From IMG/VR virus record IMGVR_UViG_2534682078_000020: a stretch of 26,360 bases of DNA; one strand, written 5' to 3'. The stretch comes from a virus (Duplodnaviria; Heunggongvirae; Uroviricota; Caudoviricetes). This document shows, in pieces, positions 15,950 through 18,336 of the stretch (position 1 is the stretch's first letter; every line of letters begins with the position of its first letter). Under the pieces are notes generated by a model. It was not told the origin of the DNA. It did not search any database and saw only the letters and a program-made list of their open reading frames with translations. The position numbers and the translations under genes were made by a program.

Positions 15950-17983
15950 ATGAGTAAAGTCTTTATTTGCGCCGCCATTCCGGACGAACAGGCAATAAAG
16001 GAAGAAGGTGCAGTCGCTGTAGCCACTGCCATTGAAGCCGGTGATGAATGTCGCGCCCGCGCAAAATTTCACTGGCAATTCCTGGAACATTATCCGGCTG
16101 CTCAGGACTGCGCTTATAAATTTATTGTCTGCGAGGATAAACCTGGCATACCCCGCCCTGCCCTCGATTCATGGGATGCTGAATATATGCAGGAAAACCG
16201 CTGGGATGAGGAGTCTGCTTCTTTTGTCCCGGTTGAGACTGAATCCTATCCGATGAACGTCACTTTTGACAAGCTGGCCCCTGAAGTACAGAACGCTGTC
16301 ATGGTTAAGTTCGACACATGTGAAAACATCACCGTTGATATGGTTATTAGCGCACAGGAATTGTTGCAGGAAGACATGGCAACATTCGACGGACATATCG
16401 TTGAAGCGTTGATGAAAATGCCAGAAGTTAACACCATGTATCCGGAGCTTAAGTTGCACGCCATTGGGTGGGTTAAGCATAAATGTATTCCTGGTGCTAA
16501 ATGGCCCGAAATTCAGGCAGAGATGCGCATCTGGAAAAAACGTCGCGAAGGTGAACGCAAGGAAACCGGAAAATACACGTCTGTTGTTGATCTCGCCCGC
16601 GCCAGAGCCAATCAACAGTACACTGAAAATTCAACAGGAAAAATCAGCCCGGTCATTGCTGCCATTCATCGCGAATACAAGCAGACATGGAAAACACTGG
16701 ATGACGAACTGGCCTACGCTCTCTGGCCTGGTGATGTGGATGCCGGAAACATTGACGGCAGCATCCATCGCTGGGCAAAAAATGAAGTTATCGACAACGG
16801 CCGCGAAGACTGGAAGCGTATCTCGGCATCAATGCGCAAACAGCCTGATGCCCTTCGCTACGACCGCCAGACTATTTTTGGCCTTGTCCGTGAACGTCCG
16901 ATCGACATTCACAAAGACCCTGTGGCACTGAACAAATACATTACTGAATACCTGACTACAAAGGGCGTGTTTGAAGATGAAGGAACAAATCAGAGCGCAA
17001 CTGACACTCTCTCGTCGCCAGTACCAGAAACTGATGCAGTGGAAACGGCAATTCCGGACAACGAAAAAACCGAATGCAAAGTGGAAGTCGAACCATCTGT
17101 AGAGCGTGAGGGGCCGTTCTACTTCCTCTTCACCGACAAGGATGGCGAAAAATACGGTCGCGCAAACAAACTTTCTGGTCTGGATAAGGCGCTGTCTGCT
17201 GGGGCTACTGAAATCACGAAAGAAGAATATTTCGCCCGCAAAAACGGTACATACTCAGGTTCACAACAAAATACTGGTGCATCTGACACGACCGCACAAC
17301 CAGGGTCAGTAAAAGTTACCGCTGACGAAGTAAACAAAATTATGCAGGCAGCCAATATCAGCCAGCCTGACGCCGATGAACTGCTTGCAGTATCACGTGG
17401 TGAATTTGTTGAAGGGATTAGCGACCCGAATGATCCGAAATGGGTTAAGGGGATCCAGACCCGCGATTCTGTGAACCAGAACCAGCAAGAAACGGAACAG
17501 AACGACCAGAAAGCGGAACAAAACAGCCCAAATACGCAACAAAACGAGCCAGAAACGAAACAACCTGAACCACTACAACATCAAAAAAAGTTGCTTGCCG
17601 TATTCGGTAAGGTGCCGGCAGATTCCATAAAACCAGAACACATCCGTCGATACATGGACAAGAGAGGGGAGCAGAGTAAAACGCAAGCCAACCATGAAAA
17701 AAGCAGTATGTCCCGCGTTTACAGTTGGGGGTATGAGCGAGGGTACGTGAAGGGTAACCCATGTGCAGGTGTAAGTAAATTCAAGGCCAAAAACCGCGAA
17801 CGATATGTAACCGACAAAGAATACCAGGCAGTATTAAGCGTTGCACCTCTTCCTGTTTTTATCGCAATGGAAATTGCCTATCTGTGTGCAGCGAGGGTTT
17901 CCGATGTGTTATCGCTGAAATGGGAGCAGATTGGAAACGACGGAATCTTTATCCAGCAAGGGAAAACAGGAAAAAACAGATAA
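15950..17983 (+). CDS. YdfE-like prophage protein, fused in frame at its C-terminus to integrase-like sequence
   Basis: 677-aa ORF; N-terminal ~540 aa unrelated to integrases, last ~130 aa align with lambda Int core-binding and early catalytic region. Confidence 0.55.
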   Translation: MSKVFICAAIPDEQAIKEEGAVAVATAIEAGDECRARAKFHWQFLEHYPAAQDCAYKFIVCEDKPGIPRPALDSWDAEYMQENRWDEESASFVPVETESYPMNVTFDKLAPEVQNAVMVKFDTCENITVDMVISAQELLQEDMATFDGHIVEALMKMPEVNTMYPELKLHAIGWVKHKCIPGAKWPEIQAEMRIWKKRREGERKETGKYTSVVDLARARANQQYTENSTGKISPVIAAIHREYKQTWKTLDDELAYALWPGDVDAGNIDGSIHRWAKNEVIDNGREDWKRISASMRKQPDALRYDRQTIFGLVRERPIDIHKDPVALNKYITEYLTTKGVFEDEGTNQSATDTLSSPVPETDAVETAIPDNEKTECKVEVEPSVEREGPFYFLFTDKDGEKYGRANKLSGLDKALSAGATEITKEEYFARKNGTYSGSQQNTGASDTTAQPGSVKVTADEVNKIMQAANISQPDADELLAVSRGEFVEGISDPNDPKWVKGIQTRDSVNQNQQETEQNDQKAEQNSPNTQQNEPETKQPEPLQHQKKLLAVFGKVPADSIKPEHIRRYMDKRGEQSKTQANHEKSSMSRVYSWGYERGYVKGNPCAGVSKFKAKNRERYVTDKEYQAVLSVAPLPVFIAMEIAYLCAARVSDVLSLKWEQIGNDGIFIQQGKTGKNR

Positions 17984-18336
17984 AAGCATGGAGTCCACGA
18001 TTACAGGCGGCGATCGAAAAAGCAAAACAGTTACCAACATCCGCCTATGTAATCAGTAATCAATACGGCAACCGATATATGTACAAAGGCTTTAACGAAA
18101 TGTGGGTAGAAGCAAGAAATCGCGCAGGCAAAATTTCAGGTATTTTAACCGACTTCACCTTTCATGATCTGAAGGCGAAAGGAATTTCAGACTATGAAGG
18201 AAGCAGTCGGGATAAGCAACTTTTCTCTGGTCACAAAACCGAGGGGCAAGTGCTAATCTATGACAGGAAGGTTAAAGTTTCACCGACACTTGATGTCCCG
18301 TTACCTGAAAATATTCCAAGAAAATATTCCAAGTAA
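17584..18336 (+). pseudogene. Lambda-family tyrosine integrase remnant: no arm-binding N-terminus, frameshift at A6 run 17971-17976
   Basis: PLPVFIAMEIAYLCAARVSDVLSLKWEQI...QQGKTGK then (shifted frame) KQIKAWSPRLQ...FTFHDLKAKG...SGHKTEGQVLIYDRK parallels lambda Int CWLRLAMELAVVTGQRVGDLCEMKWSDI...EQSKTGVKIAIP...TFHELRSLS...GHKSDTMASQYRDD. Confidence 0.7.

Follow-up and report, generated by a model that had tools for sequence, protein, structure and literature searches.

The right end of the serU prophage and its closest relatives

The locus under study is the remnant of an integrase gene at the right end of a lambdoid prophage inserted at the tRNA gene serU, as contained in a viral sequence of 26,360 nucleotides (IMG/VR record IMGVR_UViG_2534682078_000020, the whole of which is called the window hereafter and provides the numbering). 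Judged by sequence, its closest analogue is the right end of the Qin prophage of Escherichia coli K-12 (dicB-ydfD-ydfE'-IS2E-intQ'), which carries the same block of genes, 95% identical to positions 14970-16716 of the window over dicF-dicB-ydfD-ydfE, and in which an exonuclease gene is likewise cut to a 5' remnant followed by an integrase pseudogene, the prophage being immobilised. An earlier note on this DNA had called the upstream part of the locus YdfE-like, a fair label given that ydfE of K-12 derives from the same exonuclease gene, of which truncation by IS2 has left an even shorter piece. In Qin, however, the damage was done by insertion of IS2, and intQ comes from a different integrase with another site, next to ynfP/rspB, whereas in the window a single clean deletion of 1371 bp fuses both remnants in frame at serU. 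We consider it very probable that this deletion wrecked the whole integration-excision module, leaving a locked prophage and an inert chimera, and that the lysine found at a conserved arginine position of the integrase is normal and the accompanying frameshift an error.

The closest intact relatives are the serU modules of E. coli AF57 (L008), of a sequence deposited as phage vB_EcoM-606R7 (L002) and of Salmonella phage ST64B (Sb28/Sb29), all with integrases of the same clade as that of the window; the E. coli serU copies are 98-99% identical to it and the ST64B protein 64%, and the ST64B record itself names the integrase (Int) of CP-933U as similar. These modules share with the window the HDLKAK motif, serU as the bacterial attachment site (attB) and the order exo, xis, int, tRNA; in E. 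coli the intact arrangement reads exonuclease (824 aa), excisionase (DUF4224, 67 aa), integrase (341 aa) and serU. Unlike the window, which has neither Int residues 1-87 nor xis, they possess a full Int of 341 (or 329) residues together with the excisionase. Int of phage lambda (PDB 1Z1B, 1Z1G, 1P7D, 1AE9) resembles the intact integrase in full-length homology and three-domain layout, while differing from it in the residue R311, which is Lys throughout the clade, and in the attachment site, here a tRNA gene; the copy in the window differs also by its truncated N-terminus. Finally, Lys is found at the box II arginine position of Cre R292K (PMC2943603) and of Pal_Y-Int_1 (PMC12884075), both of which keep recombination, even if, unlike the window clade, the former is a point mutant and the latter a Pseudomonas integrase.

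The chromosomes of enterohaemorrhagic E. coli (EHEC) of serogroup O111 match the window at about 100% identity, and comparison with the O111:H- strain 110512 places the window at the right end of a prophage of about 50 kb, lying between yodB and serU and carrying nleC and several insertion sequences (IS). L002 and L008 served as the intact reference loci for DNA alignment. The int gene of L008 (3237-4287 of NZ_OZ546943.1) was taken as intact because it translates into a clean open reading frame (ORF) of 341 aa, ending in KYSK and a stop codon, although PGAP flags it as 'frameshifted'; the PGAP annotation seems to run too far at the 3' end. L002 (ON470580.1, 'Escherichia phage vB_EcoM-606R7, partial genome') continues via serU, mtfA and asnT into the ybtS island, and thus includes host chromosome beyond the right attachment site (attR): it is a prophage with its flank, not a packaged genome.

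The deletion and its probable consequences for excision

Two overlapping ORFs cover the locus, one of 677 aa (15950-17983) and one of 150 aa (17884-18336). As the earlier note had it, the first ~540 residues of the longer ORF are unrelated to integrase; its first 541 codons are those of an exonuclease. In DNA alignment with L002 and L008, the collinear blocks consist of the exonuclease gene at 15958-17572 and, from 17573 onward, of int beginning with its nucleotide 262, which lies within the 677-aa ORF as proposed before, though slightly upstream of the start near 17584 that had been given. Exonuclease codon 541 is joined to integrase codon 88, and the frame is kept across the join, in agreement with the in-frame fusion proposed in that note. 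The junction reads GAA CCA/CTA CAA CAT, or E-P/L-Q-H-Q-K-K in protein (the slash marking the join), with a position that is ambiguous by up to 3 nt. A route through the 7-nt microhomology TGCAACA, which occurs near the breakpoints in both parents, was rejected, the actual product being 3 nt shorter than this route predicts.

The missing 1371 bp comprise 849 nt from the 3' end of exo, a 58-nt spacer, the gene for the DUF4224 protein and the first 261 nt of int; in the intact arrangement the last two genes overlap by 1 nt. The lost protein of 67 aa is an excisionase by PHROGs classification, and the same kind of gene (DUF4224/phrog_1266) adjoins int in L002, L008, ST64B, mEp390 and ZF40. One deletion has therefore ruined three genes, two of which it joined together. 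Annotation by RefSeq PGAP is in line with this outcome, since it recognises an 'exonuclease, pseudogene, missing C-terminus' at 15950-17587 and a 'tyrosine-type recombinase/integrase, pseudogene, missing N-terminus' at 17561-18337. When a run of six adenines (A6) within the int part is restored to the seven (A7) of other genomes, exo'::'int becomes a single uninterrupted ORF of 795 aa (L009 16135-18522). In the RefSeq genomes of O111 the fusion does form one such ORF of 795 aa, with a complete integrase catalytic domain, yet PGAP still splits it into two pseudogenes. Coordinates are collected in table 1.

Table 1. Features of the exo'::'int locus and of its attachment sites
Feature	Position	Strand	Description
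exo'	15950..17572	+	Codons 1-541 of lambdoid-prophage exonuclease gene, 818-824 aa when intact
Deletion junction	17572..17573	.	1371 bp lost relative to L008 2127-3497
'int	17573..18336	+	Codons 88-341 and stop of lambda-type tyrosine integrase, ST64B/CP-933U clade
R195 codon	17894-96		Active site; lambda R212 (MAFFT)
K218 codon	17963-65		Active site; lambda K235 (MAFFT)
A6 run	17971..17976	+	A7 in L002, L008, strain 110512 and every other genome examined
H285 codon	18163-65		Active site; lambda H308 (MAFFT)
K288 codon, AAG	18172..18174	+	Active site, Arg-II position; lambda R311 (MAFFT); clade trait
H308 codon	18232-34		Active site; lambda H333 (MAFFT)
Y317 codon	18259-61		Active site; lambda Y342 (MAFFT)
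attR copy of 62-bp att repeat	18389..18450	.	Equals 3' part of serU
serU, tRNA-Ser(CGA)	18389..18478	-	ARAGORN, RefSeq annotation, comparison with empty K-12 site
attL copy of att repeat	L006 17050-17111		~49.9 kb left of attR, beyond the window, adjoining yodB; comparison with empty K-12 site

The exonuclease remnant matches positions 1-541 of the 823 in profile phrog_2082 and is 97.8% identical, without gaps, to an intact gene of 818 aa (L007 1986-3600). It has no zinc-ribbon-like Cys cluster and no C-terminal Rv2179c-like 3'-5' exonuclease domain; the latter (PF16473) occupies residues 643-814 of the intact 824-aa protein, and a Pfam search found no match to this DEDD-type domain in the window ORF. 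The profile itself has a peculiarity: its positions 540-816 match integrase (residues 86-320 of P0001, E = 7e-14), which suggests that the seed alignment of this 'exonuclease' family contains exo::int chimeras and could mis-annotate integrases. Chimeric pseudogene ORFs may thus contaminate protein-family profiles.

On the integrase side, the contention that the arm-binding N-terminus is gone is borne out. The absent residues 1-87 align with the arm-binding domain of lambda Int and with the beginning of the core-binding domain, about 24 residues of which are lacking from 'int; the Pfam central domain spans residues 64-154 of the intact integrase. What is left is 98-99% identical to the intact 341-aa integrases P0001 and P0002 and encodes all six catalytic positions in conserved order and spacing, including the His and the Tyr nucleophile (LIYDRK) named in the earlier note, with Lys288 at the Arg-II position. 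In the window the fragment (residues 545-677 of the long ORF) reaches 23 bits against Pfam cut-offs of 27, and the 150-aa ORF has no Pfam match, the frameshift splitting the domain between the two; P0001, which is 99% identical, passes with 44.8 bits for PF00589 and 28.3 bits for PF22022. An intact homologue aligns over its full length with lambda Int (HMMER, E = 2.7e-12), TFHDLKAK standing opposite TFHELRSL.

Both ends of the prophage have been preserved. The last 62 nt of serU at its 3' side come from the phage side of attR, and the copies of the repeat at attR and at the left site (attL) differ by two mismatches that form a compensatory base pair in the variable arm of the tRNA; this confines the original crossover to the last 19 bp, ACTCCGGTTTTCGAGACCG, corresponding to the anticodon arm. 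With direct repeats present on both sides at a tRNA gene, the substrates for excision exist, but the proteins do not. Neither a relocated xis nor the Int N-terminus was found by tblastn at E < 0.1 in the window and the left 49 kb of the prophage, and in O111 genomes a search at blastn sensitivity returned a single locus per genome, with no second copy of the int of the serU prophage. In lambda biology, no excisive intasome forms without Xis and without the arm-binding domain of Int.

The simplest explanation would start from an ancestral order of dicB, ydfD, exonuclease (~820 aa), excisionase (DUF4224), integrase (341 aa) and attR/serU, in which one illegitimate deletion of 1371 bp brought codon 541 of the exonuclease gene next to codon 88 of int, the frame being kept by chance and the microhomology amounting to no more than 3 nt. 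At one stroke this event removed the 3'-5' exonuclease domain, the whole excisionase gene, the arm-binding domain of Int and the start of its core-binding domain, and, by analogy with lambda, any int promoter situated inside xis would have gone with the excisionase gene. The prophage, while keeping attL and attR, would then be locked in place because no protein that it encodes could assemble an excisive intasome, and it would be inherited vertically; in real O111 genomes the 795-aa exo'::'Int chimera would depend for its expression on the early leftward operon alone and is in all likelihood inert. It is therefore a well supported conclusion that the integrase is a remnant and that the prophage should not excise on its own, remaining fixed at serU. 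The earlier note had reached the same verdict of an excision-defective prophage from four arguments, two of which, the truncated N-terminus and the in-frame fusion, hold, whereas Lys at Arg-II and the frameshift give no support; the strongest ground, the deletion of xis along with Int residues 1-87, had not been seen.

The distribution of the junction agrees with this explanation. Among 5426 complete E. coli genomes, 42 carry it at 100% identity; these came from cattle, humans, flies and water, and all serotyped carriers are O111 (H8, NM, H- or H2), reference strain 11128 included. An identical junction in so many genomes fits the vertical inheritance of an immobilised prophage. The deletion explains how EHEC O111 comes to have, in the nleC prophage at serU, a marker that is stable and passed on vertically.

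Could the chimera be a functional protein that has been retained, for example as a domesticated recombinase or a DNA-binding factor? Its ORF is uninterrupted in all RefSeq genomes of O111 and identical across the 42 genomes, and its catalytic domain is complete with all six active-site residues. But chance alone would give an in-frame join in one case out of three, and the 42 genomes represent one recent clone, so that their identity is uninformative on selection. Moreover, the protein is devoid of the arm-binding domain and of the first part of the core-binding domain, xis is missing and PGAP treats both halves as pseudogenes. By established lambda Int biology, an arm-less Int cannot perform att recombination. 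A retained function is thus highly improbable.

Several considerations nonetheless weigh against the explanation by a single disabling deletion. The chimera has lost nothing of the catalytic domain and only a minor part of the core-binding domain, and may have residual DNA cleavage or topoisomerase activity; also, the attribution of the frameshift to an artefact, as discussed below, derives from comparison among genomes. Defective prophages are sometimes mobilised in trans, and a chromosomal integrase of 50% identity is claimed to act on the att sites of ST64B (PMC12455584). The serU prophage would still excise if another element in the cell supplied integrase and excisionase, a scenario which the intact attL and attR and the many lambdoid prophages of O111 would permit. 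Yet only one locus per O111 genome matches int, the integrase of the neighbouring asnT site is of a different family (no tblastn match with serU Int at E <= 1), and stability is also suggested by 42 genomes sharing one junction at one site. Supply in trans is consequently very unlikely, and the deletion remains for us the event which most probably fixed the prophage.

Lysine at the Arg-II position and the run of six adenines

A different account of the locus, that of the earlier note, holds that the integrase is also chemically dead through mutation of Arg-II to Lys and that a genuine frameshift adds to its decay. The position of the lysine had been assigned correctly: K288 corresponds to lambda R311, with FTFHDLKAK opposite TFHELRSLS in an alignment that leaves no doubt around the motif. 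No Arg is present in the segment DFTFHDLKAKGISDYEG, and therefore re-gapping cannot place one at Arg-II; an alternative gapping of this kind was ruled out also by the Arg-bearing relatives, which read FHD[LI]RAK at the same spacing. Nor can it be denied that this arginine is nearly invariant, for across tyrosine recombinases the Arg-II position has been reported as R in 99.1% and K in 0.5% of the cases (Gibb et al.; PMC2943603).

As a sign of a lesion, or as an argument about excision, the lysine nevertheless fails. Of the 120 database homologues closest to this integrase, which range down to 59% identity, 119 have HD[LI]KAK. Among the 120 full-length representatives listed for clusters at 50% identity, Arg-II is K in 81 and R in 36, within the same FHD[LI][KR]AK context; conservation at the five remaining catalytic positions is 95-100%. 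Lys is also found in the integrases of the temperate phages ST64B, mEp390 and ZF40. Excision of ST64B has been measured by quantitative PCR (qPCR) of attP (PMC12455584), and ZF40 was recovered from an induced lysogen. Cre R292K is active in vivo and in vitro (PMC2943603), while a natural integrase with Lys at Arg-II integrates efficiently in Pseudomonas putida (PMC12884075). Lys288 thus appears to be a normal active-site residue, fixed as a trait of its clade and uninformative about decay, even if the activity of Lys within this clade is suggested by phage biology only. Taken with the evidence on the frameshift given below, the notion of a chemically dead integrase is already largely refuted, and we find it hardly credible. 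Before a non-canonical active-site residue is taken for a lesion, it should be compared with what is usual in the clade of the protein.

The Lys-type group includes the integrases of ST64B and of serU type, the latter found in more than 1000 when 5426 complete E. coli genomes were searched. There is some small chance, to which we give little credit, that lambda-type integrases include a large natural group in which Lys does the work of the near-invariant Arg-II or, as far as the locus is concerned, that the 795-aa chimera keeps some activity; if true, the Lys-type clade could be a natural system for learning how the ligation defect of Cre R292K is compensated. A Lys variant at Arg-II is already documented in the literature, and the size of the clade is only a mildly interesting by-product of the analysis. 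We had also considered the 'IntKX' subgroup of Smyshlyaev et al. as one named after such a lysine, and dropped it: the subgroup consists of simple recombinases of integrative and conjugative elements (ICEs), and their paper describes the RKHRH pentad as 'otherwise strictly preserved'.

The frameshift proposed in the earlier note does exist in the window, where the loss of one A from the run splits the fused ORF into 15950-17983 and 17884-18336, but it does not seem to represent genuine decay. In a search of complete E. coli genomes with a 91-nt query centred on the A-run, none of the 1118 genomes having the segment showed A6, and the best match, at 98.9%, corresponded to a 1-nt gap; all 42 genomes that share the deletion junction, reference strain 11128 included, belong to this A7 set. 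When the window is compared over 9.9-24.6 kb with the O111 strain 110512, the only differences are four losses of a single A (at 13348, 17971-17976, 22574 and 23879), and the other three fall in coding sequences (CDSs) that RefSeq annotates as intact. Two of these others were tested, and neither occurs elsewhere: none of 43 genomes has the one, and none of 821 the other. A6 thus belongs to a set of four single-A losses and, like both of the others tested, is confined to this sequence; in all probability the frameshift stems from a homopolymer error made when the source genome was assembled.

Alternatively, the base may really have been lost by mutation, in the source strain and in no other. 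Runs of seven adenines are hot spots of slippage, and a pseudogene under no constraint is free to gather such changes. Against this stand the four single-A losses with zero substitutions over 14.7 kb relative to strain 110512, the uniqueness of all three tested losses among 43 to 1118 genomes, and the fact that the losses other than A6 lie inside RefSeq-intact CDSs. A private mutation is therefore unlikely, though it retains more than nominal weight, and an assembly error is preferred. With or without the frameshift, the fused gene is already dead. Other apparent frameshifts in the window are to be distrusted, the source assembly seemingly containing homopolymer errors, and in general a single-base homopolymer frameshift of one assembly is best checked against sister genomes.

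The locus is a case of ordinary prophage decay, already known, with both halves flagged as pseudogenes in RefSeq, and has little importance beyond annotation hygiene.

Neighbouring elements of the window

The block shared with Qin encodes, just upstream of the fusion ORF, a dicF-like small RNA (sRNA) and the cell-division inhibitor DicB. At the other end of the window, an element of the IS66 family, ISEc47 (tnpA, tnpB and transposase), lies at about 580-3000 beside a trio of phage tRNA genes (3203-3454), one of which has a CAT anticodon and is assigned to Met by ARAGORN and to tRNA-Ile (lysidine type) by RefSeq.

Beyond serU, an intact integrase of P4/SXT type is encoded on the plus strand at 19659-20999, adjoining the tRNA-Asn gene at 19470-19545, with Arm-DNA-bind_3, Phage_int_M and Phage_integrase domains that all score above threshold. 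It heads a separate island at asnT, which contains genes for S-4TM pore-forming effectors and a remnant of a pilV shufflon; in other strains the asnT site is occupied by the yersiniabactin island (HPI).

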